A stretch of 64,000 bases of DNA from Myxococcales bacterium (GTDB lineage: Bacteria > Myxococcota > UBA727 > VGSZ01): NCBI GenBank assembly GCA_023248635.1, contig JAHFED010000015.1, positions 25,177 through 89,176 of the forward strand, in the 5' to 3' direction. Positions 16,622 to 61,900 of this stretch are shown here, piece after piece. The notes beneath the pieces are model-generated. The model made no database searches. It saw only the letters and a list, made by a program, of their open reading frames with translations, and was not told the origin of the DNA. How positions within the stretch are numbered: position 1 is the first letter of the stretch; every line of letters starts with the position of its first letter. The translations under genes and the position numbers were made by a program.

Positions 16622-16631
16622 GCACCGGCGG

Positions 16632-17363: not shown

Positions 17364-17456
17364 GAATTCACCGACAGCGCTGCGCGTGTCGGTGAATTGT
17401 CTACAGGTTCATCGCCTGGCGGCGATGAATCGTCTACCGGTTCATCGCCGGTGGCG
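17364..17456. repeat. Double-hairpin palindromic repeat element, copy 1 (one unit plus a partial unit)
   Basis: The sequence GAATTCACCGACA-GCGCTGCGCG-TGTCGGTGAATT (hairpin A), GTCTACAGG, then TTCATCGCC-TGG-GGCGATGAA (hairpin B) is near-identical to copies at 22842, 30804 and 43087. Confidence 0.9.
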
Positions 17457-22841: not shown

Positions 22842-22908
22842 AATTCATCGCCGCCAGGCGATGAACGTGTAGACGATTCACCGACACGCGAAGCGTGTCG
22901 GTGAATTT
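22842..22908. repeat. Double-hairpin palindromic repeat element, copy 2 (inverted orientation)
   Basis: AATTCATCGCC-GCC-AGGCGATGAA CGTGTAGAC GATTCACCGACACGCGAAGCGTGTCGGTGAATT is the reverse complement of the unit at 17364 and sits 17 bp upstream of the antiporter-like operon. Confidence 0.9.
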
Positions 22909-30793: not shown

Positions 30794-31016
30794 GGCGGTT
30801 TCCGAATTCACCGACAGCGCTTCGCGTGTCGGTGAATTGTCTACAGGTTCATCGCCTGGCGGCGATGAATTGATTGACCTTCGCCAGGCTTGGTCCTTTC
30901 CTCGATGCCTTCGTTGCGTGCTCGGTGAAGCCGGAGAGGCTGCCCCTGCGCCGCGCCTCGGCCTCGAGGAAATTCCCGGCGTCGGGCTCGATCAATCAAC
31001 AAGGAAACCGCCCTAG
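30790..31016. mobile_element. MITE-like element: 13-bp terminal inverted repeats (TAGGGCGGTTTCC ... GGAAACCGCCCTA) around a 226-bp segment that contains one double-hairpin repeat unit (30804-30872)
   Basis: A perfect 13-bp inverted repeat is read directly from the sequence. It exactly fills the gap between two convergent genes. Both gene stop codons (TAG) are supplied by the repeat termini. Confidence 0.55.
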
Positions 31017-42103: not shown

Positions 42104-43078
42104 GTGCGGATCCATCCGGGCGGATTTCGACTGGTGCTCGCGGGGCCGAGGGTGTCGAGGTTGCTGCCCTTTCTGCAGGAGAAGGGCTTCGTCGGCGATG
42201 CCTTCGCCAACGGCAAGCAGGCCCTCGAGCACCTGCGAGGCTCGCCCTGCCACGTGCTGTGCATCGAGATCGAGGTCGGCGACATGATGGGCGTCGACCT
42301 GGCCCGCATCGGCAAAGACGAAGGTCTCGTCGGCGCCACCTTGCTCCTGGAAGATCCGATCAAGTCGGGCATGGTGATTTCGGCGTTGGCGCGCGGCATC
42401 GAGGCCTTCGTGCCGGTCCCGCCCGACGAAAAGCTGCTGCTCGACCGGCTCGAGGCCCTGCTGCTGGCCCAATGGGGGCTCGTCGTCAGCCAGCAGCAAG
42501 AGCAGCAGACGCAGGAGCTGGCGCGCGCCCGTCTCGAGCTCGATCAGGCGGGAAAAAAAGCCCAGCAGGCAGAGGAGGTCTTTCGAGAGCTCACCCAGAG
42601 CGCCAGCCGAGACCTCGCCGACGAACGGCGCAAAGTTGCAGAGTTGGAGAGTGAGATCGCGTCGTTGCGCGACCAGCTGGCGACCATGCACCTGCTGGTG
42701 GGGGCAAAGACCGGCAACACCGACGAAGGCCTCTCAACCCGCTCTGGCGAAGGGAGGAGGGTCAGCGGCAGCAACATCCCCGCAGGCGACTTCGACGACG
42801 AGATCACGCTGAAACGGCAGGCCGTGGTGCGAAACGAGCCCACCACCCGGCCCCAGCAGGCTCTCCCCGACGTCGACGACGCGCCGACGCCTCACCTTCC
42901 TCGGGCAGCGGCCCGTCCGGTGAAAAAAGATGGCAGCCCCGGCCAGTCCGCGGAAGCACTTCCAAAGGCACGCAAGAGCCCAGCGACGACGGCCAAGCTC
43001 GATGTGGGCATGTTGAGAGAGCTGGCCGGCATCCCCAAGTCTGGCGAAGAAGAGATCATCTTCGTCGAGGATGACTGA
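42104..43078 (+). CDS. FrzS-like (pseudo)receiver plus coiled-coil protein
   Basis: REC-like FRLVLAGPRVSRLLPFLQEKGF...VLCIEIEVGDMMG is followed by a coiled-coil (QQQEQQTQELARARLELDQAGKKAQQAEE...). The start is ambiguous between 42023, 42053 and 42104. Confidence 0.55.
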   Translation: MRIHPGGFRLVLAGPRVSRLLPFLQEKGFVGDAFANGKQALEHLRGSPCHVLCIEIEVGDMMGVDLARIGKDEGLVGATLLLEDPIKSGMVISALARGIEAFVPVPPDEKLLLDRLEALLLAQWGLVVSQQQEQQTQELARARLELDQAGKKAQQAEEVFRELTQSASRDLADERRKVAELESEIASLRDQLATMHLLVGAKTGNTDEGLSTRSGEGRRVSGSNIPAGDFDDEITLKRQAVVRNEPTTRPQQALPDVDDAPTPHLPRAAARPVKKDGSPGQSAEALPKARKSPATTAKLDVGMLRELAGIPKSGEEEIIFVEDD

Positions 43079-43086
43079 CAACAGCG

Positions 43087-43344
43087 GAATTCACCGACAG
43101 CGCTTCGCGTGTCGGTGAATTGTCTACACGTTCATCGCCTGGCGGCGATGAATTCACCGACGGCTTCGCGTGTCGGTGAATTGTCTACGGGTTCATCGCC
43201 TGGCGGCGATGAATTCACCGACAGCGCTTCGCGTGTCGGTGAATTGTCTACACGTTCATCGCCTGGCGGCGATGAATTCACCGACGGCGCTTCGCGTGTC
43301 GGTGAATTGTCTACGGGTTCATCGCCTGGCGGCGATGAATTCTC
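43087..43344. repeat. Tandem array of four double-hairpin palindromic repeat units (63/61/63/63 bp), copy 4
   Basis: (GAATTCACCGACAGCGCTTCGCGTGTCGGTGAATTGTCTACACGTTCATCGCCTGGCGGCGAT) repeats four times head-to-tail with no unique spacers. Alternating unit variants indicate duplication of a 2-unit block. Confidence 0.95.
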
Positions 43345-43358
43345 ATAGCGTCGCAGCC

Positions 43359-44582
43359 ATGGACGTCGTCTTCATCGAGCCCTGCTTTCCCCAAAACCAG
43401 CGGGAGTTCGTGCGCGCGCTGCACGCTGTCGGCGCTCGCGTCAGTGGCATCGGCGAACGTCCCAAGGAGTCCCTCGACGGCGAACTGAGGCACTGGCTCT
43501 CGCACTATGAGCAAATTCGAAACGTCACAGACATCGGCGATGTCGAACGCGCGGTTCGCTTCATCCAATCCAAGGTGAGGGTGCAAAGGCTCGAGGCCGT
43601 CGTCGAGGCCCACGTCATGACCGCGGCCAAAGTACGGGAGCGCTGCGGGATCCCAGGCACCAGCGTGAACTCCACCTGGCTCTGCCGCGACAAGCCGGCC
43701 ATGAAGGACGCCCTGCGCGAGGCTGGCGTCGCCTGCGCCCAATCCATCGGCTCCAGCGACGCCGCCGAAATCCGGGCCTTCGCCGCCCAGGTTGGCTTCC
43801 CCATGATCATCAAGCCCCGCGATGCGGCCGGAGCCTCAGGCACCGTCCGCGTCGACGACGTCGCCAGCTTGGAGCGGGCGCTGGTCGAGTTCGACGTTGT
43901 CAAAGGCAAGAGTGTCGCCGTCGAAGAATTCATCGAGGGACATGAGGGCTTCTACGACACCCTCACCGTCTCCGGCCGCGTCGTCGCCGACTTCGCCACC
44001 CACTATTTTCCCAACGTGCTCGAGGCCATGCGCACCCGCTGGATCTCGCCGCAGTTCATCACGACCAACCGCCTCGATCACGCCTCGGCCTACGGCGAGG
44101 TCAGGGCCATGGGCCAGCAGGTGATCAGCGCGCTGGGCATCGAGACCTCGGCCACGCACATGGAGTGGTTCTTTGGTCCCAAGGGGCTCAAGTTCAGCGA
44201 GATCGGCTGCCGGCCTCCCGGCGTGCGCACCTGGGACCTCTACTGCGCCGCCAACGACGTCGACGTCTACCAGGAATGGGCGATGGCGGTGGTGCACGGC
44301 AAGCGCGGCCAGGCTCTGTCGCGCCGCTTTTCGGCGGGCATGATCGCGCTGCGGCCCGAATGCGACGGCACCATCGTCGGCTACGAGGGCGTCGACGAGG
44401 TGCACCGGCGCTTCGGCGAGTGGTTCATCGACGAGCACCTGCCCCCCCGCGGACACCCGACCCAGCCCGTCGACGCCGGCTTCATGGCCAACGCCTGGAT
44501 GAGGCTCAAACACCCCGACTACGACACGCTGCGCGGCATGCTCGATGTGATCGGCCAGACCGTGAAGGTGCGCGCGCGCTGA
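43359..44582 (+). CDS. ATP-grasp family ligase (RimK/D-Ala-D-Ala-ligase-like fold)
   Basis: The central ATP-grasp region ...CRDKPAMKDALREAGVACAQS...GFPMIIKPRDAAGASGTVRV... is present. I placed the start at ATG 43359 (MDVVFIEP), immediately after the repeat array. Confidence 0.7.
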   Translation: MDVVFIEPCFPQNQREFVRALHAVGARVSGIGERPKESLDGELRHWLSHYEQIRNVTDIGDVERAVRFIQSKVRVQRLEAVVEAHVMTAAKVRERCGIPGTSVNSTWLCRDKPAMKDALREAGVACAQSIGSSDAAEIRAFAAQVGFPMIIKPRDAAGASGTVRVDDVASLERALVEFDVVKGKSVAVEEFIEGHEGFYDTLTVSGRVVADFATHYFPNVLEAMRTRWISPQFITTNRLDHASAYGEVRAMGQQVISALGIETSATHMEWFFGPKGLKFSEIGCRPPGVRTWDLYCAANDVDVYQEWAMAVVHGKRGQALSRRFSAGMIALRPECDGTIVGYEGVDEVHRRFGEWFIDEHLPPRGHPTQPVDAGFMANAWMRLKHPDYDTLRGMLDVIGQTVKVRAR

Positions 44583-44592
44583 GCGACGTGTA

Positions 44593-45666
44593 TTGACCCT
44601 TGCTGTGAGCACCGTGCCGGAAGAACAGAGCCAGCCCCCCCAAGCAGCGAGGCCGTCGGCGGCGGCGAACAACACCTCGCGCACCGCCGTGCTCTTGGGA
44701 GCCCAGCGCTTCAACCCCACCCTCGGCAGCGTCGTCGCCTCCCTCGGCCTGCAGGGACGGGTCGCGCTCATCACCGCGGGTTGGCAGGAACGGGAGCGCG
44801 AAGACGACGAGCTCTCGACCCACCTCGGCAGCAACACCATCAACCTGGGCCTGCATGCTCGCGGCGGCGCCGTGTTCCACGAGGACAAGGAGCTGGCCGT
44901 TGCCCACCGCGAACGCCAGGACTTGCTGCGGCATCTGCAAGAAATCTATCGCATTCGGCTCGAGGCCGCCTTCGAGGCCGAGCGCGACGTTCGTGCCTAC
45001 GACACGCCACCGGCCCTTCGTGACGAGGTGGCAGAGGCGTCGATCGAGGCCATCCGCGGCCTCGACGCCTGGCACCTCGATCAGTGCGCCCGCGTGCGCG
45101 CCGACTTCGAAGGGCGCTTTCATGTCGCCCAGCGGCCGGCGGTCGCTCGCCAGCGCGAGGAGCTGCGAAAGCTCCTGCAGGACTGCAGCGCCGTCGCCAT
45201 CGCCGGCGGCCACGTCGCCGTCCTTGTCAACCGCTTGGTGCTCTTTGGCCTCGACGAGCTCATCGGCGATCGGCCGATCTTCGCCTGGTCGGCGGGGGCC
45301 ATGGCCGTGAGCGATCGCATCGTGCTCTTTCACGACGATCCGCCTCAGGGACGCATTGCTCGTCAGGTGCTCGACGTCGGCCTGGGCTTCGTCCCAAAGA
45401 CCGTGGTGCTGCCCGAGCCGGAGCGGCGGCTCCACCTCGAGGCCCAGGATCGCATCTCGCTGGTGGCGCGCCGTTTTGCGCCGGCGACCTGCCTGGCCTT
45501 TCCGGCTTGCTCCTACGTCGTCTGGCGAGCTGGTCACATCGAGCGCGCCGAAGGGGTCATCGAGCTCAGCGCTGGCGGCGAGCACCGGCCCTTTCTCCCC
45601 GAGGAGCACGATCGCCGGGCCCGGCCCGATCGACGCGCGAGCAGCCGCGACCGGCGGGCCCGATGA
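44593..45666 (+). CDS. Peptidase S51 family protein (cyanophycinase / dipeptidase-E-like)
   Basis: The nucleophile motif GxSAG is seen as AWSAGAMAV, inside a class-I glutamine-amidotransferase-like fold (AVAIAGGHVAVLVNRL...). It is 10 nt downstream of the ATP-grasp gene. Confidence 0.55.
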   Translation: MTLAVSTVPEEQSQPPQAARPSAAANNTSRTAVLLGAQRFNPTLGSVVASLGLQGRVALITAGWQEREREDDELSTHLGSNTINLGLHARGGAVFHEDKELAVAHRERQDLLRHLQEIYRIRLEAAFEAERDVRAYDTPPALRDEVAEASIEAIRGLDAWHLDQCARVRADFEGRFHVAQRPAVARQREELRKLLQDCSAVAIAGGHVAVLVNRLVLFGLDELIGDRPIFAWSAGAMAVSDRIVLFHDDPPQGRIARQVLDVGLGFVPKTVVLPEPERRLHLEAQDRISLVARRFAPATCLAFPACSYVVWRAGHIERAEGVIELSAGGEHRPFLPEEHDRRARPDRRASSRDRRAR

Positions 45667-45754
45667 TGCTCTCCGCGCCACAGACCTGGCTCAGGGGATC
45701 GTTCAACGACGTTGAGACAAAGATCGGGACCATCGGGACGATGGCGAGGCCACG

Positions 45755-46906
45755 ATGGTGACCCCTCCCACCACCACCGCCGTCGAAGAGCTCATCGAGG
45801 CTTGGTCCGATCCGGCCAAGGTGCGGGGCTTCCTGTCGACGCACAAGTTCCCGCTGGTGCACGGCTCGCTGGTCACCTTCGTCTGGCTCGGTCACGCCGA
45901 CGGCGTCAGCCTCCGCCATTGGGTCTACGGCCTCGAGTCGTCGACGACGCTGACGCGGGCGCCCAACACCGACATCTGGCACCTCACCCTCGAGATCCCG
46001 TCGAACTCGCGCGTCGAATACAAATTCGAGCTCCACCGCGGCGGCCACAACGAGTGGATCGAAGACCCCCTCAACCCCGCCCGGGCCCGCGACCCCTTCG
46101 GCGCCAACTCGGTGCTGCAAGGCGAGGGCTACGTCATCCCCGAGTGGACCAACCCCGACGCCGTCACCCGCCGCGGCACCCTCGAGCCCCTCATCGTCGA
46201 CAGCAAAGCCCTGGGCAACCGTCGCTTCGGCCATCTCTATCTGCCGGCCCGCTTTCGCCGTTCGCGTCAATATCCTCTGTTGGTGGTGCACGACGGCGAC
46301 GACTACATTCGCTATGCCAACATGGTCACGGTGTTGGACAATCTCATTCACCGCCTCGAGATTCCGGACTTGATTGTAGCGTTTACGGGTTCGCCGGATC
46401 GCCTGCGCGAATACGCCGACAACGAGGCCCACGCCCGCTTTGTCACCGAAGAGATGCTGCCCCAGATCGCCTCGCGCTTTCCCCTCGTCGACCAGCCTCA
46501 AGGCCGCTGCTTGATGGGAGCCAGCTTCGGCGCCGTCGCCGCTTTTTCCACCGCCTGCCGCTACCCGAGCGTGTGGGGACGCCTGCTGCTGCAATCGGGG
46601 AGCTTCGCGTTCACAGACATCGGCCGCCGCAACCGCCGCGGACCCCTCTTTGACCGCGTCGTCGAATTCGTGAACGCCTACCGCGCCGAGCCCAAGGCCA
46701 TCAGCCAGCGCGTGTTCATCAGCTGCGGCGTCTACGAGTCCTTGATCTACGAGAACCGCTCGCTGGCTCCCTTGCTCGACGCCACCGGCATGCAGGTGCG
46801 CTTCGTCGAAGCCAGAGACGGCCACAATTGGCAGAATTGGCGCGACCGCCTGCGCGAAGGCCTGTCCTGGCTCTTCCCTGGCCCGCTGCTCTTCGTTTAT
46901 GAATAA
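45755..46906 (+). CDS. Enterochelin-esterase-like alpha/beta hydrolase (N-terminal Ig-like domain plus esterase domain)
   Basis: The GxSxG nucleophile CLMGASFGAVAAF is present, preceded by ...YPLLVVHDGDDY.... The N-terminal beta-sandwich is like that of Fes/IroE-type esterases. Confidence 0.65.
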   Translation: MVTPPTTTAVEELIEAWSDPAKVRGFLSTHKFPLVHGSLVTFVWLGHADGVSLRHWVYGLESSTTLTRAPNTDIWHLTLEIPSNSRVEYKFELHRGGHNEWIEDPLNPARARDPFGANSVLQGEGYVIPEWTNPDAVTRRGTLEPLIVDSKALGNRRFGHLYLPARFRRSRQYPLLVVHDGDDYIRYANMVTVLDNLIHRLEIPDLIVAFTGSPDRLREYADNEAHARFVTEEMLPQIASRFPLVDQPQGRCLMGASFGAVAAFSTACRYPSVWGRLLLQSGSFAFTDIGRRNRRGPLFDRVVEFVNAYRAEPKAISQRVFISCGVYESLIYENRSLAPLLDATGMQVRFVEARDGHNWQNWRDRLREGLSWLFPGPLLFVYE

Positions 46907-46920
46907 GTGCGCTTGGGCGA

Positions 46921-48198
46921 TTGCCGGCGCCGAGGTCCACCATGGCTGAGGTCACGCGACGCATCGGGCTCTCCTTGGGCGCCGACATCTGCTGGCCCGC
47001 CTGCTTCGAGCACATGCTCAGAGAGCTCGATCTCAAGATCCCCGTCGACGGCGACACCGTGCGCTTCGAGTGCGAGCGGGTCACCATCGAGCCCTTCGAC
47101 CTGCAGCAACCCTGCAAATACGACGTCGTCATCGATCGATTGACCCACTGGTATCACACCAGCCGTGAGTGGATCAAAAAGTCCATCATCATGGACGACC
47201 TTTATGTATTCAACAACCCCTGGAGCGTGCAGTCCAACGAGAAGCACACCAGCTACTGCGCGATGATGCACCTGGGCATGCCCATCCCCACGACGTGGAT
47301 GATCCCCCCGCGCAGCTACGAAAAAGAGCTCCCCGACGTCAAAGTCACACTCAACAAATACGCGCGCCTCTTCGACCTCGGCAAGCTCGGCGACAAGGTC
47401 GGCTGGCCCCTGTACCTCAAGCCCTACGACGGCGGCGGCTGGCGCGCGGTCACCCGCGTCTCTGACGTCAAAGCCGCCTGGAAGGCCTACGACGACAGCG
47501 GCAAGGCGGTCATGCACGCCCAGGCCTCCGTCGAGGGCTTTGACCGCTTCGTGCGCTGCATCGGCTTTGGACCCCAGACCAAGTGCGTGCTCTACGACCC
47601 CTCGGCCCCCCTGCACGACCGCTACACCCTGCAGACCAACTTCATCTCCGACGCCGACGCCGAACACCTGCGCAAGGTCACGGTCACCATCAACGCCTTC
47701 TTCGGCTGGGACTTCAACTCCTGCGAAGCCCTGCGCAAGCCCTCTGCTGGCGGCGCCGGCGGCGTCTGGCATCCCATCGACTTCGCGAACCCCTGCCCCG
47801 ACTCGCAGGTGACCTCGCTGCACGGCCATTTTCCCTGGCTGGTGAAGGCCTACCTGCGCTGGGCCCTCTTTTGCGCCGCCACCAAAAGAAAGATGCGCCG
47901 CACCCTGGACTGGCAGCCCTTCTACGACGTCGCCGCCCTCGATCTCTCCTACGAAGAAAAACTCGATCGCTACGCCGCCATCGCCGACGAGCGCATGGGC
48001 CGCGCGCAATTTGAAGAGTTCTGCGCCAGGCACCTGAGCCACCTCGACGACGTCGCCTTCGCCTTCTTCGGCACCCAAGAGGCCAAAGACGCCGTGCGCC
48101 AGAAGACCGCGGCTTTGTTTCCGGCTCATGAGGTCGAAAAGTTCACCGAGCTCTTCTGGCAGCGCATTCAAGCCTGGCGGGCGGCCGGCGTCCCGTGA
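46921..48198 (+). CDS. Second ATP-grasp family ligase (RimK/GspS-like)
   Basis: ...VQSNEKHTSYCAMMHLGMPIPTTWMIP...GWPLYLKPYDGGGWRAVTRV... matches the S-N-K and K-P-x-D-G-x-G-x-G-V ATP-grasp motifs. The start may be 46921 or 46942. Confidence 0.6.
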   Translation: MPAPRSTMAEVTRRIGLSLGADICWPACFEHMLRELDLKIPVDGDTVRFECERVTIEPFDLQQPCKYDVVIDRLTHWYHTSREWIKKSIIMDDLYVFNNPWSVQSNEKHTSYCAMMHLGMPIPTTWMIPPRSYEKELPDVKVTLNKYARLFDLGKLGDKVGWPLYLKPYDGGGWRAVTRVSDVKAAWKAYDDSGKAVMHAQASVEGFDRFVRCIGFGPQTKCVLYDPSAPLHDRYTLQTNFISDADAEHLRKVTVTINAFFGWDFNSCEALRKPSAGGAGGVWHPIDFANPCPDSQVTSLHGHFPWLVKAYLRWALFCAATKRKMRRTLDWQPFYDVAALDLSYEEKLDRYAAIADERMGRAQFEEFCARHLSHLDDVAFAFFGTQEAKDAVRQKTAALFPAHEVEKFTELFWQRIQAWRAAGVP

Positions 48199-48659
48199 GC
48201 GAGTTTTGGTTCGGCTCGCTTTATGAGGAGATGAGAGAACCACAGGGCGATCTTTTTGACGACGTTCTCGCTCCTCGCCTCGATGACGCCCATCGGGCAC
48301 TTCAGGAGATGGACTATGTCTTTCGAGATGAAGGGGCGTTGCTCCTCGATAAAGACGTCGAAAATGAGCGCGATTTATACGCTTTCTCTCGAGTTGCCGA
48401 TCAGTTGATCTCACGGGTCGCTTCCAAAGAAGAGCGGGTTCGATGGCTGATGGATGATGAGGTGTTGCACTTGATTGGTGACAACAAAATCCTTGATAAA
48501 AACCACTTTGAACGCCTCGATTTGGGCGATCTCACCCACGCCGATCGGGTGGAGCTGCTCCGTCATCGCTGTTTCGTCACCGGTCGTCACGACGTAGGGC
48601 GTGAGCATCCCGACCGCTCCACGGACTTTCGCTACGAGGAACCGAATTCGACGGCGTAG
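48195..48659 (+). CDS. Small acidic protein (154 aa) of unknown function in a sharply low-GC (~50%) segment
   Basis: It overlaps the upstream ATP-grasp gene as ATGA. It is rich in D/E, and the codon usage and GC are atypical for the replicon. Confidence 0.45.
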   Translation: MSEFWFGSLYEEMREPQGDLFDDVLAPRLDDAHRALQEMDYVFRDEGALLLDKDVENERDLYAFSRVADQLISRVASKEERVRWLMDDEVLHLIGDNKILDKNHFERLDLGDLTHADRVELLRHRCFVTGRHDVGREHPDRSTDFRYEEPNSTA

Positions 48660-48673
48660 CCCTCGGCGCTTGA

Positions 48674-49459
48674 ATGCTCTCGTGCGAGCGTGCTGGCGTT
48701 CCCGTCATTGGAGGCCCCGTGTTCCTGAAGTCCCGCTGGTATTCGTCGCGCATGGGCGCCCAGTCCACCCTCGCGCGCTGGGGCGAGACCGGCCAACCCG
48801 TGCTGCTGCTGCCCACCGCCGGCGGCGACGCCGAAGAGATCGAGCGCTTTCACCTCATCACCGCGCTCAAAGACCTGCTGACGGCGGGGAAGATCAAGAT
48901 CTACTCCTGCGACAGCGTCGCCGGCCGCGCTTGGTTCAACCGCGAAGGCTCGCCCCAGCACCGCATGTGGATGCAGGACGCCTTTCACCACTACATCCGC
49001 GAAGAAGTGGTCCCCGCCATCCGCATGGATTGCAAGAAGCATCACGGCGACGACCTCCCGATCTGGAGCGCCGGCGCCTCCATCGGGGCCTTTCACGCCG
49101 CTGCCCTGGTGTGCCGCTTCCCCGACATCTTCACGCGCGCCCTGGCCATGAGCGGCACCTACAACCTCATGCGCTTCATCGAGACCGACACGCCGACGGC
49201 GGAGTACTGGCGGGCCTCTCCCCTGCAGTTCGTGCCCCACCTGCAGGGGCGCCACCTCGAGATCTTGCAGACCCGCTACATCCACATCGCCACCGGCGAA
49301 GGACGCTGGGAGTCCCTGCCGGAGAGCTGGGGATTGGCCAATGTGCTGGGCGCCAGGGGCATTCCCAACCGGGTCGAGAACTGGGGCCCGGACTGGCACC
49401 ACGATTGGGTGACCTGGCGCGAGATGCTGCCCAAGTACCTCGGCGCGTGGACCGCCTGA
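48674..49459 (+). CDS. Esterase-family alpha/beta hydrolase (esterase D / S-formylglutathione-hydrolase-like)
   Basis: The nucleophile motif is GASIGAFHAA, preceded by ...PVLLLPTAGGDAEE.... The start may be the internal ATG 48749. Confidence 0.6.
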   Translation: MLSCERAGVPVIGGPVFLKSRWYSSRMGAQSTLARWGETGQPVLLLPTAGGDAEEIERFHLITALKDLLTAGKIKIYSCDSVAGRAWFNREGSPQHRMWMQDAFHHYIREEVVPAIRMDCKKHHGDDLPIWSAGASIGAFHAAALVCRFPDIFTRALAMSGTYNLMRFIETDTPTAEYWRASPLQFVPHLQGRHLEILQTRYIHIATGEGRWESLPESWGLANVLGARGIPNRVENWGPDWHHDWVTWREMLPKYLGAWTA

Positions 49460-49546
49460 GGCCGCAAGCGTCCACCCGGTCGGTGCACGCCGGGACAGAG
49501 GGCGACGTGCTTTGACGTGCCTCTCGGTGGCGCGAGACCCTGGATC

Positions 49547-52165
49547 ATGATCAGGTCCTTCGTCGTCGTCCTCGCGTTGACGTTCATCGGTCTCGCTGGC
49601 TGTTCGGCTGCCGAGCTGGCAGGGGAGGGCGAAGAAGGCGAAGGCGAAGGCGAAGGAGAAGGCGAAGGCGAAGGTGAGGGAGAAGGCGAAGGCGAAGGCG
49701 AAGGCGAAGGTGAGGGAGAAGGCGAAGGAGAAGGCGAAGGCGAAGGCGAAGGCGAGGGCGAAGGCGAAGGCGAGGGCGAGGGCGAAGGAGAAGGAGAAGG
49801 AGAAGGTGAGGGAGAAGGTGAGGGAGAAGGTGAGGGAGAAGGAGAAGGAGAAGGAGAAGGAGAAGGAGAAGGGGAAGGCGCATCGCAGCAAGAGGACTGC
49901 GACAACGGGGACGACGACGACGGCGATGGCAACGTCGACTGTGAGGACCCAGACTGCCTCCCCACAGCACCCTGCAATGCCTGCGGCAACGGCATCCTCA
50001 ACGCTGGGGAGCAGTGTGACGACGGCAACCTCCTCGGCGGGGACAATTGCTCCCCCACCTGCTCGCTGTGCGGCAACGGCCACACCGATCCCGATGAGGA
50101 GTGCGACGACGGCAACGGCATCAACGGCGACGGGTGCGACGTCGACTGTGTCATCAACTTTTGCGGAAACAACATCGTCGATCAGGGCGAGGAGTGCGAC
50201 GACGGCGGCGCCAACTCCGACGTCCTCGCCGACGCCTGCCGCTCCTCCTGCGTCTTGGCGTTCTGCGGCGACGGCACCATCGACGCGGCTGAGCTCTGCG
50301 ACGTTGGGCAGGGCGACGGCGGCATCCCCTGCGAAAACGACTGCACCTTCACCTTCTGTGGCAACCACATCATCGACCCCGGCGAAGAATGCGACGACGG
50401 CGACAACGTCGACGGCGACGACTGCCGCTTCAACTGCTTGTTCGAGGTCTGCGGCGACGGCTTTCAAAACACCGGGGAGGCGTGTGACGACGGCGACACC
50501 CTGAGCGAGGATGGCTGCTCCTCTGGCTGCCTGGTGGAATTCTGCAGCGACGGGATCACGCAAGCGGGCCTGGGTGAGGAGTGCGACGACGGCGACATCA
50601 ACAGCGGCGACGGCTGCCGCAGCGATTGCACGGCCGAGGTCTGCGGCGACGGGATCACAGACGCCGACGAGGAGTGCGACGACGGCAACGACCAGAGCCA
50701 GGATGGCTGCTCGTCGATCTGCCTGGTGGAGAGCTGCGGTGACGGCGTCGTGCAACCCGGCCGGGGCGAGGAGTGCGACGACGGGAACTCGAACTCCAAC
50801 CTCGGAGCGTGCCTCATCAATTGCAAGCAGGCTGCGTGCGGCGACGACTTCGTTCACCTCGGTGTCGAAGGGTGCGACGACGGCAACACCGACAACGGCG
50901 ACGGCTGCGATGACGACTGCGTCAGCTCGCGCGTCCTCGCCATCGAAGCCGGCTTCGAGCATACCTGCGCGCTGCTGCCCCCGTCGCCGACGGTTCCGTC
51001 GATCCAGCGGGTGCGCTGCTGGGGACGCGGCACCAGCGGACGACTCGGCTATCCAGCCAATGGAACCAACGCCATCGGCGCCACGAACACGGTCGCAAGC
51101 TTTGGGGACGTCAATCTAGGGGGGGACGCCGTACAGGTCGCCACCGGCCGCGACCACACCTGCGCGCTCTTGGCCGATCACACCGTCCGCTGCTGGGGCT
51201 TGGGGGCAGGAGGTCAATTGGGCTACGGCGCCACCGACAACCTCGGCGACAACGAGCTCCCGGCCCTTGCGGGGGCGGTGCCCATCGGCGGACCCGTCGT
51301 GCAAATCGCCGCTGGTGCCCAGCACACCTGCGCCGTGCTCGAGAACCAAAAGGTGCGCTGCTGGGGACAGTCGGTCGAAGGCGAGCTCGGCTACGGCAAC
51401 CAAAACCCCGTGGGCAACACTGCGCAGTCGCGGCTGACAGAGCTCCCGGCGCCCGACGTCAACGTCGGCGGCGACGTCGTGCAAATCGCCGCCGGTGACT
51501 TTCACACCTGCGCCATCCGCGACACCGGCACGGTGGTTTGCTGGGGCTTCGGCGGCGACGGTCAGCTGGGCTATGGAAACACGTCTACCGTTGGCGCTCT
51601 CGATGTCCCCGCCGCTCGCGAGGTCAACCTCGGGCCCGGCGCGGCAGCCATCCAGATTGTGGCCGGCTCCCGACACACCTGCGCGCTGCTCTTGGGGGGG
51701 GCGGTGCACTGTTGGGGATTGGGCGACAGCGGCCAGCTCGGCTACGGCAGCAACCTCGAGGTCGGCGACAACGAGACCCCTGCCGCCGCCGGCCCCGTCT
51801 CCATCTCCGCCACCGGGGCAAAGACGGTGCAAATCGCGGCCGGCGCTTCCCATACCTGCGCGCTCCTCGACACCGGCGAGGTGCGTTGCTGGGGTTTCGG
51901 AGCCAATGGACAACTGGGCAACTCGAGCAACGCCACCGTCAGCCTCGGTGGCCAACCACCCTCGGCGTTCGCTGTGGTCCCGCTCGGCGCCGACGTCGCG
52001 CAGATCACGGCCGGTGGTTTTCACACGTGCGCGCTCCTGGTGACCGGCAGGGTCGTCTGCTGGGGGAGCAGCAGCCAAGGTCAGCGCGGCTACGGCAACA
52101 CCACGACCATCGGCGACAACGTGAACCGCCCGCCCCAACTGGATGGCTTCGTGCCGGTGTACTGA
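49547..52165 (+). CDS. Lipoprotein: (Gly-Glu)n linker, multiple Myxococcus-type cysteine-rich (myxo-disulfide, TIGR02232-like) repeats, C-terminal RCC1/beta-propeller repeats
   Basis: [19 protein letters not shown] (lipobox) is followed by ~85 aa of (EG)n. About 12 repeats of ...CGNG/CGDG...EECDDGN...DGC...C... follow, then 7 or more repeats of HTCALL..G.VRCWG.G..GQLGYG (RCC1). Confidence 0.85.
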
Positions 52166-52326
52166 CGAGAGCCCGGGGGGTGGCACCCAGCCGCCCAGAC
52201 GCAGCACCCTCGAGGCTCGCTCGTTGGAGCCGGCGCAGACGACGACGTGCACGTTTGGGGCGTGACTTGTTGTATTCCTGGCGGCCGCTCACGAACCTCA
52301 GGACGCCGCCGCCCGGGCAACGAGAA

Positions 52327-54318
52327 ATGACGATGGACGAGAACCGGACCCACAAAGCTGTCGACGGCGAGCTCGAAGGCGAGGGTCGGCGCGCCTACAT
52401 GCACGCGCTGCTGCGCGATCTGCACGCCCTCGACGCCATGGTCGAGCAGGACGCCTTCGAACGCGGCGTCAGTCGCATCGGCGCCGAACAAGAGATGTTC
52501 CTCGTCGACGACGCCTTCCACCCCACCAAGGGTGCGCTCAAGGTGCTCGAGCAGCTCGACGATCCCCGCTTCACCACCGAGCTTGGGCTCTTCAACCTCG
52601 AAGCCAACGCCGGCGCCCAACCCTTCTCGGGCACGGGCCTGTCGGACATGGAAAAGGAGATGCACCTGCTCTTTGAGAAGGTGCGCACGGCGGGGTCGTC
52701 CATCGGCGTCAAACCGATCATGGCCGGCATTCTCCCCACCATCGGCAAGACCGATCTCGGCCTCGACAACATGGTGCCCAAGCCGCGCTACCAGGCGCTG
52801 AACCGGGCCATGAACGCCGCCCGCGGCGAGGCCTTCGACTTCTCCATCCGCGGCATCGACGAGCTGGTGGTGCGCCACGACTCCGTCATGGTCGAAGCCT
52901 GCAACGCCAGCTTTCAGGTGCACCTGCAACTCGCCGAGCCCGAGCGCTTCGCCCACCACTACAACATCGCCCAACTGCTGCTCGGACCGGTACTGGCGGC
53001 GGGTCCCAACTCGCCCCTGCTCTTCAACCGCCGCCTGTGGGCAGAGACCCGCATCGCTCTCTTCGAGCAGTCCTGCGACGTGCGCACGCCGGGACTTCAC
53101 TTGCGCGACTCCATGGGCCGCGTCTCCTTCGGCCGCCAATGGCTCAAAGGCGGCGTCGCCGATCTCTACAAAGAAAACGTCTCCCGCTTCCGCGCCCTCG
53201 TCGGCACCCCCCTCGACGCTGGCGACGACGGCCCCGATGCCCTTGCTGCGGGCCGTGTGCCCACCATGAAGGCCCTGCGCCTGCACAATGGCACCGTCTA
53301 CCGCTGGAACCGTCCCTGCTACGGCGTCTCCGAAAACGGCAAACCCCACCTGCGCATCGAGCTGCGCGTGTTGCCCTCAGGACCCACCGTCGCCGACGAA
53401 ATCGCCAACGCCGCTCTGTGGCTCGGCCTGATGAGCGAGCTGGGAGCCACCGTCGACGACGTCGCCTCACGGGTCGGCTTCGAAGACGCGCGGGCCAACC
53501 TCTACGCCGCCGCTCGGGATGGCTTGCGCGCCAGGCTCACTTGGCTCGACGGCGAAGAGGTCGCCGTCGACACCCTCTTGCTCGATCGCTTGTTGCCCCT
53601 GGCCAAGGCCGGCTTGAACCGAGCAAAGATCGCCGGCGCCGACAGCGATCGCTACCTGGGCATCCTCGAGAAGCGCTGGCGCACCCAGCGCACGGGGTCG
53701 TCGTGGATGCTGCAGTCCCTCGCCGGCATGAAGGGCCGGGGCACACCGGGAGCGCGCTTGACGGCGTTGACGGCGGCCATCCATGCCCGGCAACAGTCGA
53801 CGCAGCCGGTGACGGAGTGGGAGCTGGCCCAGCTCGACGAGCACGAGAGCGCCAGCGCGCACTTTCAGAAGGTCTCTCAGTTCATGCTGACCGACATCTA
53901 CACGGTGCGTCCCGACGACCCCATCGAGTTGGTGTGGGACCTGATGACCTGGGAGCGAGCCCGCTACGTGCCCGTCGAGGACGAGCGCGGCCGCTTGGTG
54001 GGCCTGGTCTCTTACCGCGGTGTCATGCGCCACCTGGGCAGCGTTGCCCGCGGCAGCGTCGACAGCGCGTCGATGGCCCCCGTTTCGCAGATCATGAGGC
54101 GCGAGCTGATCACCGTGACCCCCGATACGCCGACGCGTGAAGCCATCGGCTTGATGAAGACGCACAAGATCGGCGCGCTGCCCGTGGTGCAGGGCGAGCA
54201 CATCGTGGCCATCGTGACCGAAGCCGAATTCGTCGGATTGGCCGCCAAGCTGCTCGAGGGCTTCGTCACCGAGCTGCCGTCGTCGTCGTCGTTGCCCTCT
54301 CCCGCTGAGAGGGGCTGA
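52327..54318 (+). CDS. GCS2-family carboxylate-amine ligase (YbdK-like glutamate-cysteine-ligase family 2) fused to a C-terminal CBS-domain pair
   Basis: The N-terminal ~400 aa is GCS2-like (...RIGAEQEMFLVD..., ...FQVHLQL...). The C-terminal ~150 aa has two CBS motifs (MLTDIYTVRPDDPI...; IMRRELITVTPDTPTREAIGLMKTHKIGALPVV). The start is ATG 52327 (MTMDENRTH). Confidence 0.7.
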   Translation: MTMDENRTHKAVDGELEGEGRRAYMHALLRDLHALDAMVEQDAFERGVSRIGAEQEMFLVDDAFHPTKGALKVLEQLDDPRFTTELGLFNLEANAGAQPFSGTGLSDMEKEMHLLFEKVRTAGSSIGVKPIMAGILPTIGKTDLGLDNMVPKPRYQALNRAMNAARGEAFDFSIRGIDELVVRHDSVMVEACNASFQVHLQLAEPERFAHHYNIAQLLLGPVLAAGPNSPLLFNRRLWAETRIALFEQSCDVRTPGLHLRDSMGRVSFGRQWLKGGVADLYKENVSRFRALVGTPLDAGDDGPDALAAGRVPTMKALRLHNGTVYRWNRPCYGVSENGKPHLRIELRVLPSGPTVADEIANAALWLGLMSELGATVDDVASRVGFEDARANLYAAARDGLRARLTWLDGEEVAVDTLLLDRLLPLAKAGLNRAKIAGADSDRYLGILEKRWRTQRTGSSWMLQSLAGMKGRGTPGARLTALTAAIHARQQSTQPVTEWELAQLDEHESASAHFQKVSQFMLTDIYTVRPDDPIELVWDLMTWERARYVPVEDERGRLVGLVSYRGVMRHLGSVARGSVDSASMAPVSQIMRRELITVTPDTPTREAIGLMKTHKIGALPVVQGEHIVAIVTEAEFVGLAAKLLEGFVTELPSSSSLPSPAERG

Positions 54319-54322
54319 GCCC

Positions 54323-55570
54323 ATGCAGCTCCAACCCAGCGTTGGCGCCGACCGCCAGGCGAAGTCGTCCTCGTCCGCTCCCACTGGGGCACCCTCTCCC
54401 AAAACTGTGGGCGGCCGGGCGTCGACACCTGGCGAGGCCACTACCGGAGTCGCTTGCGAGCGCGTGATGGGGCGGGTGCGGGGACAAGAGGCGGGACCCT
54501 CCCTCGTCGTCGTCGCTGGCATCCATGGCAACGAGCCCGCGGGGGTCGAGGCCGCCCGGCGGGTGCTCTTGCGGCTGGCCCAGGGCGACATCGCCTTGCG
54601 CGGTGAGCTGGTGATCTTGGGCGGCAACGTCGCGGCCTTGCGTACCGGTGCCCGCTACCTTCAGCGCGACCTCAACCGCGGTTGGACCGACGACGACGCC
54701 TTGCGCTTGCAGACCGCAACGCCGGGGAGCTTGCAGGCCGAAGATCGCGAGCAGGCCGAGCTTCTGGCGGCCATCGAGGTCGTGCGCTCGACGGCGCGGG
54801 GGGCGGTGCACCTCGCCGATCTCCACACCTCGAGCGCGCCCGGCGTTCCCTTCGTCATCTTTGGCGACACGTTGGTGCAACGGCGTTTCGTGCGGGTCTT
54901 TCCCATTCCGGTGATCATCGGCCTGGTCGAGCACGTCGACGGCGTCCTCTCGGAATTCTGGAGCCGCCGCGGCCTGGTGACCTTCTCCGTCGAAGGCGGC
55001 CAGCACGAAGACCCGCGCTCTCGCGATGGGCTCGAGGCCATCCTCTGGCTGGCGCTTTCCCAGGCCGGGATGATTGCGACGTCGACGCCGCCGGAGGTGG
55101 CAGCAGCGACCCGCTTGCTCGACCAGAGGCGGGGAGACCTGCCCCGCGTCCTCGATGTGGTGTCGCGCCATTCGATCACCGCCGCCGACGCCTTCGTCAT
55201 GGAGCCGGGTTTTCGCAACGTGCACCGCATCCCCAAGGGCTGCCTGCTGGCCCACGATCGCCGGGGGGAGATCCGCGCCAGCAGCGCCGGCGTCGTCGTG
55301 CTGCCGCTGTATCAAAAGCTCGGCAGCGACGGCTTCTTCTGGGCTCTCGAGGTCAGCGATGGCCAGCTGAGAATTTCTGAGCTGCTGCGTCGCCTCCCCG
55401 TCGATGCCCTCGTCACCTTGTTGCCAGGCGTGAAGCGCGACGCAGCCCAGCCGCGCCGCCTCGAGGTCTCGACCACCACCGGTCGCGCAAAGATCTTGTC
55501 GCTGCTGCGCCTGCTCGGCTACCGGCGAGAGAAAACCACGGGAACGACGTCGACGGTGGAGCGCGCGTAG
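54323..55570 (+). CDS. Succinylglutamate desuccinylase/aspartoacylase (AstE/AspA, M14-like) family deacylase
   Basis: Zn-binding motifs VVAGIHGNEPAG and ...LHTSS... are present. It begins 5 nt after the GCS2-CBS gene. Confidence 0.7.
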   Translation: MQLQPSVGADRQAKSSSSAPTGAPSPKTVGGRASTPGEATTGVACERVMGRVRGQEAGPSLVVVAGIHGNEPAGVEAARRVLLRLAQGDIALRGELVILGGNVAALRTGARYLQRDLNRGWTDDDALRLQTATPGSLQAEDREQAELLAAIEVVRSTARGAVHLADLHTSSAPGVPFVIFGDTLVQRRFVRVFPIPVIIGLVEHVDGVLSEFWSRRGLVTFSVEGGQHEDPRSRDGLEAILWLALSQAGMIATSTPPEVAAATRLLDQRRGDLPRVLDVVSRHSITAADAFVMEPGFRNVHRIPKGCLLAHDRRGEIRASSAGVVVLPLYQKLGSDGFFWALEVSDGQLRISELLRRLPVDALVTLLPGVKRDAAQPRRLEVSTTTGRAKILSLLRLLGYRREKTTGTTSTVERA

Positions 55571-55702: not shown

Positions 55703-56500
55703 ATGCGCTCGTTGTTCGTCGTCGTCGTCGTCTTGCTTCTCGCCGCCTGTCCCCAACATCCCGACGAAGGAGGCTTTCCCGCCGAAGGGGAGCTCGGTGG
55801 CGAAGGCGAAGAGGGGGAAGGCGAAGAGGGGGAAGGCGAAGGCGAAGGCGAGGGCGAGGGCGAGGGCGAAGGCGAGGGCGAAGGACCGCAGCCGGGCTTC
55901 GGTGCGATCTCAGGTCCTTGTGGGGTGCTCGATGACGAGCTCAGCAGCCCGCTGCCCTTCTATCTCGATGAGACCAGCATCGACTTCGGCACCGATCCCT
56001 ACGACGACGCCGACCTGCTGCTGCTCACCGCTGGAGGCCAAGAGATGGTCTCTGACGACAACGCCGGCGGGAACTCTTTGCTCTCGGAGGTGTTTAGCTT
56101 CGAGTTCTTGGCGCGCTGTGAAGGTGCAACCTTGTTCAAGACCGAGACCGAAGTCGAATATACGGTGAAACAGACGAAGATCACCGATCTCGTGGTGCTC
56201 ATCGAAGGCGTACGCTACGGTGTCAGTGTGGTGCGCACTTTCGTGTTTCCCGAGGGCACGCCCTTGTCGTCCGAAGAAGCCACCCGCCGTCTCGAGGGAA
56301 AGCTCGACGACATCTTGGTCAGCAGCGCCAACGTCGCCGCCTCCGATGCCTGGGACAAGCAGATCCTGGCCGTCATCGCCAACGAACCGGAACACCTCGC
56401 GGTCTGGCGCGCTGCCTACGATGATCTCGATGATGAAACCCGCGCTGATACCATCGTTTATGTGATTCTGACCAACGGCGACGACGCCTTCCTTCACTGA
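55703..56500 (+). CDS. Lipoprotein with a (Gly-Glu)n linker
   Basis: MRSLFVVVVVLLLAAC (lipobox) is followed by [27 protein letters not shown] and a ~200-aa globular domain of unknown function. Confidence 0.6.
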   Translation: MRSLFVVVVVLLLAACPQHPDEGGFPAEGELGGEGEEGEGEEGEGEGEGEGEGEGEGEGEGPQPGFGAISGPCGVLDDELSSPLPFYLDETSIDFGTDPYDDADLLLLTAGGQEMVSDDNAGGNSLLSEVFSFEFLARCEGATLFKTETEVEYTVKQTKITDLVVLIEGVRYGVSVVRTFVFPEGTPLSSEEATRRLEGKLDDILVSSANVAASDAWDKQILAVIANEPEHLAVWRAAYDDLDDETRADTIVYVILTNGDDAFLH

Positions 56501-58949: not shown

Positions 58950-61900
58950 ATGAAGCGTCTTCTTGTCGTCGCCCTGCCCCTGCTCGCCCTCGCCTGCGGC
59001 CGCGCCACCGACTCTGCCGCAGAAGGAGAAGGAGAAGGAGAAGGAACAGGAGAAGGAGAAGGAGAAGGAGAAGGAACAGGAGAAGGAGAAGGAGAAGGAA
59101 CAGGAGAAGGAACAGGAGAAGGGGAAGGAGAAGGAGAAGGAGAAGGAGAAGGAACAGGAGAAGGGGAAGGAGAAGGAGAAGGAACAGGAGAAGGAGAAGG
59201 AGAAGGAGAAGGAACAGGAGAAGGAGAAGGAACAGGAGAAGGAGAAGGAGAAGGAGAAGGAGAAGGAGAAGGCGGGGGTGGCTCACAAGGTGAGGGTGAG
59301 GGTGAGGGCGATCCGGAGCCTGCCGCTTGTGAGGGGGTCCTGGATTTCTGTGCCAACGGATTGTTCTGTGACGGCTTCGAGACCTGCGACCCCCTCAGCA
59401 TCGCCGCCGACGTTGACGGCTGTGTCTCTGGCCAGCCGCCGGATGCCCTGGACGCCGTCGGCTGTACGGTAGACATCTGCGACGAGGGCGCGGACGTCGG
59501 GGACAACGTCGGCTCGTTCACGCATCAACCCGACAGTGGCTTCTGCAGCGATGGCGTGTTCTGCAACGGCGATGAACAGTGTGCGCCGGGCGCGCCGGGG
59601 GCTGATGCTGTGACCGGCTGTCGTGCCGTTCCCCGCAACCTCGACGATGGCTCGGTGTGCACCACCGACGGTTGCAATGAGGGCGACCATCAGATCACCC
59701 ACGTCGCCGTCGACGTCGACGATGCCGACGCCTGCACCAACGACTTCTGCGACGAGGCAACCGGCGAGTTCCATGAAGACGCCGGGATCGAAGACGACGG
59801 CAACGTGTGCACCCTCGACGGCTGCGACAGCGTCACCGGCCCCACGCACGATCCGATCGATTTCGACGACGACATCGGCTGCACCGTGGACACTTGCGAT
59901 CCCATCACCGGCCTGCGGCACGACCACAACAACGTCGTCTGCGACGACGGTCAATTCTGCAACGGTGATGAGCAGTGTGCACCCGGGTCTTCTGGTGCCA
60001 ACGCGACCACAGGCTGCAAGAGCGTCGGCCGCGCCTTGGACGACGGCTCGGTCTGCACGACGGATGGGTGCGATGAAGAAAACGACCAGATCACCCACGT
60101 CGCTGTCGACGTAGACGATGCCGATGCTTGCACCAACGACTTCTGCGACGATGCGACGGGCGAGTTCCACGAGGTCAGCAGCATCCAAGACGATGACAAT
60201 GTCTGCACCCTCGACGGCTGCGACAGCGTCACCGGCCCCACGCACGATCCCATCGACTTCGACGACGACATCGGTTGCACCGTGGATCATTGCAATCCAA
60301 TCACTGGCCCGAGTCACGACAGCAACAATGGTTTCTGCGACGATGGTCAATTTTGCAACGGTGATGAGCAGTGCGCACCGGGGGCCTCAGGTGCCAATGC
60401 GCTCACCGGTTGCAAGGCCGTCGCCCGCGACCTCAGCGATGGCAGCCTCTGTACAAGCGATGGCTGCGATGAGGAGACCAATCAGATCACGCACACCGCC
60501 GTCGGCACCAACGACAACAACGCCTGCACCGTCGACTCCTGTGATCCGATCGCGGGCGTGTCCCACGTTGGCGTCGATCCCAACGACGGCATCGGCTGCA
60601 CCAACGACAGCTGCGATCCCAGCGCCGGGGTCTCCCATACCCCCAACAACGGCTTCTGCGACGACGCCCTGTTCTGCACTGGTGTCGAGCAATGCTCTCC
60701 CGGCGCGCCCCAAGCCGACGGCGCCTCGGGCTGCTTGGCGGTGCCGCTGCAAACCAACGACAACAACGCCTGCACCACCGACTCCTGCAACGAGGGAGCC
60801 GATCAGGTCACCCACGATCCCATCAACGCCAGCGACGGCGACTCGTGCACTGCCGACTCTTGCGACCCGTCCTCGGGCCCAATTCACGATCCCGGCCCGT
60901 TCACCCACGTCGGGGACTTCACCATCGACGAAGCCAGCGACGTCACCGGGCTGAGCACCAAGTGCTTGGTGACGGGCAGTCTCGTTGTGACAGCGAATGA
61001 TCTCGCCAACCTCTCGCTGCCAGACTTAAGGGCCATCAGCGGGGAGCTCAACGTCGATGGCAACACCACCCTCGAGAGCGTCGAGCTCACGGCACTGCAG
61101 GGCGTTGGCGGCCGGGTCCGCGTCTCCAACAACGCCGCCCTGGAGCAGCTCTCGCTGCCGCTGCTGACGGGGGTTGGGGGAAGCGTCGAGGTCGTCGGCA
61201 ACCCTGTCTTGACCAGCTTCTCGTTCGACGCGCTCTCTGGCCTCGGCGGCGCCATCGACATTTCCAACAACGCGGCGCTGACAACCTTCACGATGGCCGG
61301 GGTGCCGAACGCCGACCGCGTCGACATTCGGACCAATGCGGCGTTGACCAACTTCTCCCTGCCGGCGCTCGCCGACTGCGGCAATTCCATCATTGATTCG
61401 AATGCCGTGCTGACGATCATCGACCTCCCCGAGCTGCAAGGCATCGACAACTTCCAGATCCTCAACAACGCGGGTCTCGCGACCCTGTCGCTGCCGGCCC
61501 TGGAGACGGCGGGCGGCATCTTGGAAGTCTTCAACTGTGACGCCTTGACGACCGCCAGCCTGCCGCTCTTGGCCGCCGTCAACGGGCTCGACCTCCAGGG
61601 CAACCTCGGTCTGACCACCATTTCGCTGCCGGTGCTCGCCACGGCCGCTGGCAACGTCCAGATCGTCGCCAACGACACCCTGCCGAGCGTCTCCCTGCCC
61701 GCGCTCACCAACGTCAACGGCAATCTTCAAATCGATTCCAATGCTGCGCTGACCAGCCTCTCGCTCCCCGTGTTCAACAGCGGCGGGTTCAACGTCTCCG
61801 TCGTCAACGACGACCTCCTGACCAGCATTTCCTTGCCGGTCCTGACCGTCATTTCTCAATCGCTCTTCATCCAAGATGACTCTTCCCTGTCGAACATTTC

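Follow-up and report, generated by a model that had tools for sequence, protein, structure and literature searches.

Directly in front of a conserved ATP-grasp gene cluster, the bacterium analysed here carries four tandem copies of a strongly palindromic sequence, and this raises the question of whether the array exists to control the cluster or belongs to a family of dispersed repeats. We addressed this question in a window of 64,000 nt, that is, the whole stretch of DNA analysed (contig JAHFED010000015.1 of the Myxococcales assembly GCA_023248635.1, positions 25,177 to 89,176). We conclude, with a probability of roughly 0.75, that the array represents one BIME-like cluster within a new, lineage-specific family of REP-like repeats. 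We found no description of a REP family in Myxococcota in the literature, and the present case would add a REP/BIME-like family in an uncultured Myxococcota-like lineage.

The array occupies positions 43087-43344 on the forward strand, as delineated by Tandem Repeats Finder, a repeat search, comparison of the units and a second sample. When run on the window, Tandem Repeats Finder reports 43087-43342 with a period of 63, 4.1 copies, 94% matches and a score of 463, and the repeat search finds four copies starting 61, 63 and 63 nt apart. The units follow each other head-to-tail at 43087-43149, 43150-43210, 43211-43273 and 43274-43336 (63, 61, 63 and 63 nt, respectively), with no unique sequence or spacers between them and with a closing GAATTC after unit 4. 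CRISPR is ruled out, there being no spacers and no cas domain in the genes of the window, which bears out the original prediction of a spacer-less tandem array of a palindromic element. Unit 1 is identical to unit 3, while unit 2 can be distinguished from unit 4 by a single 2-nt GC indel. These alternating variants fit the further proposal that a two-unit block was duplicated, and such a duplication is probably behind the array, as judged from its letters.

As defined by GC3 frame analysis, gene calls and Pfam, the array fills most of a 280-nt gap separating two co-directional genes. It begins 8 nt past the stop codon (TGA, 43076-43078) of a REC-like hypothetical gene (42134-43078, forward strand), which was called on the source contig, L001. 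At the other end, 14 nt separate the last position of the array (43344) from the ATG (43359) of the ATP-grasp gene (43359-44582, forward strand, identified by Pfam), exactly the distance that had been predicted, and the unique sequence left before this ATG amounts to 14-17 nt.

The DNA comes from a short-read metagenome assembly, the 63-nt period falls short of the k-mer used in assembly (141), and unit 3 repeats unit 1 exactly, all of which could be expected if the array were an assembly artefact or a mis-collapsed repeat. However, a second ENA sample (ERZ27280021), which was independently assembled, contains the identical 258-nt array in a contig with 99.96% identity to the window (2 SNPs over 4722 bp), and comparable arrays are present at other loci. 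Because two different samples agree, we consider the structure reproducible and an artefact extremely unlikely. Since repeats of this kind can be collapsed by short-read assemblers, four units are nevertheless a lower bound, and the true copy number could exceed four.

Each unit is composed of two strong hairpins joined by a linker of 8-10 nt. In unit 1, hairpin 1 (43088-43121, forward strand) consists of AATTCACCGACA, a 10-nt loop and TGTCGGTGAATT, with arms of 11-12 nt that are 100% complementary, and corresponding inverted repeats are found on the same strand in the other units (43151-43182, 43212-43245 and 43275-43308). Hairpin 1 is 34 nt long and, in a single copy folded as DNA, displays a 12+3 bp stem with a one-base bulge and a loop of ~10 nt. 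Hairpin 2 (43131-43152 in unit 1, forward strand) is a 22-nt self-complementary block, TTCATCGCC/TGGC/GGCGATGAA, with a 4-nt loop and a 9-bp stem whose first two pairs are A/T. The equivalent 22-nt blocks of the other units lie at 43192-43213, 43255-43276 and 43318-43339, again on the forward strand. The half-sites of the hairpins, AATTCACCGAC and AATTCATCGCC, are identical at 9 of 11 positions. The basic element, ~68 nt long, can be described as two related palindromes with a variable linker of 8-10 nt and AATT at both bounds.

The linker, GTCTACACG in unit 1 (43122-43130, forward strand), has the general form GTCTACNN(G) and varies more than any other part of the unit, as judged from the segmentation of all loci and from column variability. 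Along the array, it alternates between ACACG and ACGGG, and it reads YGTC on the top strand and GTAG on the bottom strand. Adjacent units overlap by GAATT, and every junction is a GAATTC. With two palindromes per unit, the array contains eight in total, and its predicted folding is correspondingly strong: one unit folded as DNA reaches -25.1 kcal/mol (z = -6.4), and the array with its flanks folded as RNA reaches -152.7 kcal/mol (z = -7.5).

The element is not restricted to this gap. In the window, the hairpin-2 palindrome is matched 14 times and hairpin 1 is matched 5 times, where 0.01 and 0.00 matches, respectively, would be expected. Altogether, four element loci (the array included) lie in the window, which is an unselected 64-kb stretch, and two further contigs of this metagenome assembly contribute another five. 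Within the window, the copy at 17364-17456 (forward strand) comprises hairpin 1, linker and hairpin 2, followed by a second, degenerate linker and hairpin 2, for which Tandem Repeats Finder reports a period of 33 at 17393-17456. This copy lies between convergent genes, 27 nt past the stop of the gene at 16383-17336. Two single copies are found at 22842-22908 (reverse strand), upstream of a minus-strand membrane-protein gene, and at 30804-30871 (forward strand), starting 11 nt past the stop (30793) of a HAD-hydrolase gene.

The loci on other contigs were found by searching a protein collection with the translated array, whose period of 63 is a multiple of three and which is open in three frames. 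This yielded two products, both from the same ENA assembly, and the contigs encoding them, L006 and L007, add the five loci. Contig L006 bears a five-unit array (10028-10369, reverse strand), a two-unit array (5076-5206), a mosaic that has a linker at both its start and its end (1468-1601) and an inverted composite in which one hairpin 1 is common to both halves (2907-3006). The predicted protein P0121 of public collections (187 aa, L006 10001-10564) is a reverse-strand translation of the five-unit array and consequently an annotation artefact. On L007 (contig k141_3344185, ERZ27276474), a copy composed of a truncated α, an α and a β module (as defined below) lies at 4599-4690, in frame within a gene encoding an Hpt-domain protein, to which it adds ~28 residues (SASRVGEFTDTASRVGELSTGSSPGGDEF). 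An exhaustive HMMER search with this protein showed that the closest homologue, P0123 (69% identity), lacks the ~28-aa segment while its C terminus is still homologous, which identifies this copy as an in-frame insertion.

A further case from this search is the histidine kinase P0153 (446 aa, on a 37-kb contig), whose C-terminal tail spells the modules α-α-β-β-α-β. This protein probably belongs to the same organism as the window, as it has the same NCBI and ENA provenance, and in its gene the repeat has apparently overrun the stop codon, with the two modules apparently shuffling independently. Another protein, P0126 (3239 aa), which gave 29 weak matches to the element-encoded peptide, was discarded as the translation of an unrelated long tandem repeat. 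Overall, the element occurs after stop codons, between convergent genes, upstream of a gene and inside coding sequence, and the genes beside its copies include a HAD hydrolase, Mrp-antiporter-like genes, ClpS/Hsp70 and an aldehyde dehydrogenase. For annotation, this means that such elements create false ORFs (P0121 being one) and lengthen genuine proteins by in-frame segments or C-terminal tails, as for the Hpt protein and the histidine kinase.

Segmentation of all loci resolves the element into two modules, α of 30 nt, which corresponds to the remainder of hairpin 1 after the preceding AATT, and β of 33 nt, which corresponds to the linker plus hairpin 2. Every module is preceded by AAT(T/C), and most end in TGAAT(T/C). 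The element takes the form of singles, dimers, four- and five-unit head-to-tail arrays, mosaics and chimeras, and beyond plain alternation the modules are ordered as β-α-β-α, α-α-β-β-α-β or α-β-β′, or occur separately. Strict AATT bounds together with free shuffling of two modules make this family a tractable case for studying how head-to-tail hairpin repeats multiply.

Differences among the 16 full units fall mainly in the hairpin-1 loop and the linker. In hairpin 1, the right arm shows no change and the left arm varies solely in the chimeric unit, while hairpin 2 is invariant but for one A-to-G change, which still permits a G-T pair. Private variants are common to neighbouring units, CTTGGCG being found in both units of L006-5076 and CTGCAT in three adjacent units of L006-10369. 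Together with the A-B-A-B′ pattern of the present array, they point to local duplication. Units differ at 4.0 positions within a locus and at 4.2 between loci, which is not a significant difference (permutation p = 0.43), so the case for local amplification rests on a few private variants.

Does the array nevertheless serve the cluster behind it? This cluster, which extends over 43359-55570 in the window, comprises in order genes for ATP-grasp, hypothetical, esterase, hypothetical, esterase, GCS2/CBS and AstE/AspA-like proteins, an order kept in L001, L002 and L005 (related MAGs). The homologues of the flanking genes are labelled as Myxococcota or Deltaproteobacteria MAGs. An N-terminal extension of the ATP-grasp protein through the array, in an ORF that begins at 43170, was ruled out because all three orthologous loci read share the N terminus MDVVFIE, encoded here from 43359. 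It was also ruled out by the 120 homologues listed, which are 73-91% identical, 394-422 aa long and, in all 120 cases, cover 100% of the 407-aa query. On the other side, the C terminus of the REC-like protein (...EEEIIFVEDD*) is native, homologues ending at the same residues.

The original prediction held that the array could be a promoter, operator or attenuator for the ATP-grasp cluster. It does take up nearly all of the space in front of the first cluster gene, where no more than 14-17 nt are unique, and eight palindromes could bind a dimeric protein. A dedicated control element evolved for these ATP-grasp, esterase and peptidase genes is nonetheless very unlikely, and several observations speak against it. 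The same sequence is present at unrelated loci in several contexts, one of them inside a gene. The cluster is conserved in relatives without the array, which is absent upstream of the orthologous ATP-grasp gene in the closest available relatives, L004 (91% aa identity), L005 (87%) and L002 (87%, GCA_030685175.1). Moreover, the array contains no promoter-like or terminator-like consensus: between 42600 and 43700, we found no sigma-70 promoter (-35 and -10 hexamers spaced by 16-18 nt) and no intrinsic terminator (a GC hairpin followed by a T-run). Ordinary terminators are used elsewhere by this organism, since a canonical GC hairpin with a T-run lies behind a gene at ~1378-1412 of L006, just before the element mosaic, and the element is consequently not needed for such a role. 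With only 14-17 nt of unique sequence before the ATG, the promoter of the cluster is expected either further upstream or within the repeat. A striking palindromic array in front of a conserved gene cluster, in short, need not be a regulator.

The closest relatives are also informative about the site itself. To the right of the array, the flanking AATTCTCATAGCGTCGCAGCCATG can be aligned with AAATTCCAATACCGTCGGCGAATG of L004 and AAATTCCAGTACATCGCGGCCATG of L005, which indicates that the array abuts an ancestral AATT. The left flank, CTGACAAC, was considered as a homologue of the upstream sequence of the relatives, which would have defined a precise empty site, but this is weakened by its CTGA, within which the REC-like gene has its native stop codon. 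Secure homology is limited to the right flank (AATTC..ATA.CGTCG..ATG). A separate observation concerns L004, where an unrelated palindrome pair (CCCTCTCC-N9-GGAGAGGG) occurs twice, at 124-209, upstream of the orthologous ATP-grasp gene. This palindrome family is absent from the window, which suggests that the hairpin repeats in such gaps are particular to each lineage.

Searches of reference collections are consistent with a family restricted to this lineage. The whole window has no match in Rfam 15 at the gathering score, and ranking by E-value yields only chance-level matches to the array (E ≥ 0.085, at most 19 bits). Neither in 185,579 reference genomes, a collection that does not include the host organism, nor in JGI metagenomes is there a match to the exact junction pattern GAATNGTCTACNNGTTCATCGCC. 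Looser patterns for a single hairpin gave 7 matches each in unrelated taxa and were set aside after nhmmer comparison, as they are isolated palindromes or coding sequence and none has the full element.

While its sequence appears new, the architecture of the element is a familiar one. REPs are small dispersed hairpins found mostly between co-directional or convergent genes and near the preceding stop codon, are sometimes intragenic and are often reiterated in tandem (PMC3733652). The window copies that follow a stop codon start 8, 11 and 27 nt past it, and this match to the published distribution counts for the REP-like reading. REPs are imperfect hairpin-forming palindromes of 20-40 nt, and here the two hairpins measure 34 nt (with a bulge) and 22 nt (with a 9-bp stem). 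It is likewise typical that copies are numerous, scattered and mostly extragenic, with a preference for positions behind genes, and we count four loci in the window and five outside it. In E. coli, BIME-2 consists of tandem copies of two related REPs with short linkers, in numbers that vary by locus and strain (PMC3333891). Two hairpin types with linkers in tandem are also what we observe, with half-sites identical at 9 of 11 positions, a 0-nt junction, an 8-10 nt linker, one to at least five units and chimeras, although the relative orientation of the hairpins is not definable.

The likeness to E. coli BIME-2 and REP arrays, such as REP325 between yjdM and yjdN, extends to several details. 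Both consist of short GC-rich imperfect palindromes of two related types with two short kinds of linker, arranged in tandem between genes (PMC3333891), and both show a copy number that differs by locus, chimeric "atypical" arrangements and a position close behind stop codons (PMC3333891; PMC3733652). However, there is no sequence similarity between them. The hairpins of the element are 34 and 22 nt long, are arranged strictly head-to-tail and have a GAATT in common. Each unit has one tag-like motif, no RAYT was seen in the ~93 kb covered, and the host is an uncultured Myxococcota-like lineage. Classical BIMEs also differ in that a single REP type occurs in alternating, inverted copies. Here, two distinct hairpins follow each other head-to-tail, which is reportedly rare for REPs.

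The tag-like motifs deserve closer inspection. On the complementary strand, GTAG followed by AC precedes hairpin 1 in most units, with GTAG two bases from the foot of the hairpin. The motif is intact in about three-quarters of the linkers and replaced by GCAG, GTCG, ATAG or GTGG in the remaining quarter, while hairpin 2 has no GTAG of its own. YGTC is found 5′ of hairpin 2 in all linkers but one, at 5-6 nt from the stem. As these motifs are insufficiently placed or conserved, we assign the family to neither the GTAG nor the CGTC superfamily. CGTC-tagged REPs, which include dRS3 of Neisseria and RPE-4 and RPE-6 of Rickettsia and have CGTC (or TGTC/CCTC) as their terminal motif, resemble the element in several features (Di Nocera et al. 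2013). Their stem of 8-9 bp with two leading A/T pairs and a loop of 4-5 nt has its counterpart in TTCATCGCC-TGGC-GGCGATGAA, the 9-bp stem and 4-nt loop of hairpin 2, with CGTC or TGTC on the 5′ side. In-frame insertion into genes is also possible for these REPs, and no dedicated transposase is known. In contrast to their short CCA-like unpaired tail and their mostly head-to-head dimers, the element has a TT(C/G) tail, its YGTC lies 5-6 nt from the stem, and its arrays are head-to-tail and include a larger second hairpin.

Similarities to REPIN/RAYT systems and to IS200/IS605 ends include the bulged hairpin 1, the GTAG two bases from its foot on the complementary strand and insertion beside a fixed tetranucleotide, AATT, with no obvious longer target duplication. 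The inverted composite at 2907-3006 of L006 even resembles a REPIN. However, GTAG is not strictly conserved in the element, most arrays are direct rather than inverted doublets, and no RAYT or other transposase gene was seen by Pfam in the ~93 kb of this organism covered (the window, L001, L006 and L007). Mycobacterial MIRU-type repeats and pneumococcal BOX, like the element, form tandem units of 40-100 bp between co-directional genes and are modular with a variable number of modules. To our knowledge, these families are not built of two strong hairpins with a palindromic junction, and we know of no sequence relationship to the element.

Two other accounts of the origin of the array merit consideration. 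According to one, the element is MITE-like, with short terminal inverted repeats (AATTCAYCG) and a duplicated 4-bp AATT target, and arrays form as each insertion makes new AATT targets. Consistent with this, AATT is found on both sides at most loci, neighbouring units have one AATT in common, the two ends match as an imperfect inverted repeat of 9 nt, and in relatives one (A)AATTC is present at the matching place upstream of the ATP-grasp start. However, modules that occur separately or in the orders β-α-β-α, α-α-β-β-α-β and α-β-β′ would be unexpected for a MITE with two fixed ends, and the inverted repeat is merely the outer arm of each hairpin. Since, in addition, no parent insertion sequence was seen in the same ~93 kb and the left flank, just 8 nt past a native stop codon, makes for a weak empty-site comparison on that side, we regard a MITE origin as decidedly improbable.

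According to the other, which we find somewhat unlikely, the array is the scar, and possibly the agent, of a rearrangement in which copies at two loci recombined, bringing together the 3′ side of the REC-like gene and the 5′ side of the ATP-grasp cluster and merging two short arrays. Two relatives share a conserved block made up of the REC-like gene and the two genes to its left, and in both the REC-like gene is followed by a convergent Pyr_redox gene. In one of these relatives, a DAO/Rieske gene precedes the ATP-grasp cluster, which is on a different contig. The array sits at the exact joint of these two synteny blocks (43078-43359 in the window, compared with L024, L026 and L002), 8 nt from one and 17 nt from the other, and the joining of two dimers could also give A-B-A-B′. 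Such distant relatives (the REC-like proteins are ~55% identical) are expected to differ by many breakpoints, all falling in intergenic gaps anyway, and the upstream neighbour of the cluster is different in each relative examined. The position of the array is thus compatible with repeat-mediated rearrangement and constitutes weak evidence for it, which makes the junction a candidate example. The idea of a recombination hotspot, also put forward in the original prediction, fares accordingly: the location at the joint of blocks that are apart in relatives lends it circumstantial support, but copy number is the same in two near-identical samples.

Returning to the preferred reading of a BIME-like cluster of REP-like repeats, the events could have been as follows. 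An element would have entered, or been brought to, the gap between the REC-like and ATP-grasp genes at an AATT, and a diverged dimer would then have been duplicated once by local amplification, resulting in A-B-A-B′. Primary spread to new AATT sites would require a mobilizing activity, most likely a single-strand transposase (HUH/Y1, RAYT-type) acting on the hairpins, or else recombination between copies. Transcription from the upstream gene through the gap would produce an RNA with eight stable hairpins, which might shield the upstream mRNA at its 3′ end and lower read-through into the ATP-grasp cluster. There is a precedent in E. coli, where an intercistronic REP array acts as a partial terminator and stabilizes the upstream mRNA (bioRxiv 10.64898/2026.03.23.713779). 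By analogy, any effect on neighbouring genes is probably of the generic REP-hairpin type and not dedicated to this locus.

A bolder version, which we consider rather improbable, would have α and β as the minimal mobile units, each integrating just 3′ of an AATT on single-stranded DNA and itself ending in AATT, with the array also having mediated the fusion of the REC-like and ATP-grasp loci and replaced the native upstream region of the cluster. As insertion would recreate its own AATT target, arrays would extend head-to-tail. If true, this would represent a self-seeding variant of HUH/Y1-type transposition, which has not been described for REPs.

Other repeats in the window are of a different kind. 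Long hexanucleotide tandem repeats are found at 49634-49880 ((GAAGGC)x41), at 55802-55884 (runs of (GAAGGC)/(GAGGGCGAAGGC)) and at 59021-59272 ((AGAAGG)x42), the first of them within a large ORF by which the conserved ATP-grasp cluster is interrupted in comparison with L002. Two tandem duplications of coding type, at 50381-50784 (192 nt x2.1) and 59643-60429 (396 nt x2.0), are rich in Cys, Asp and Gly codons and lie in genes for large repeat proteins.
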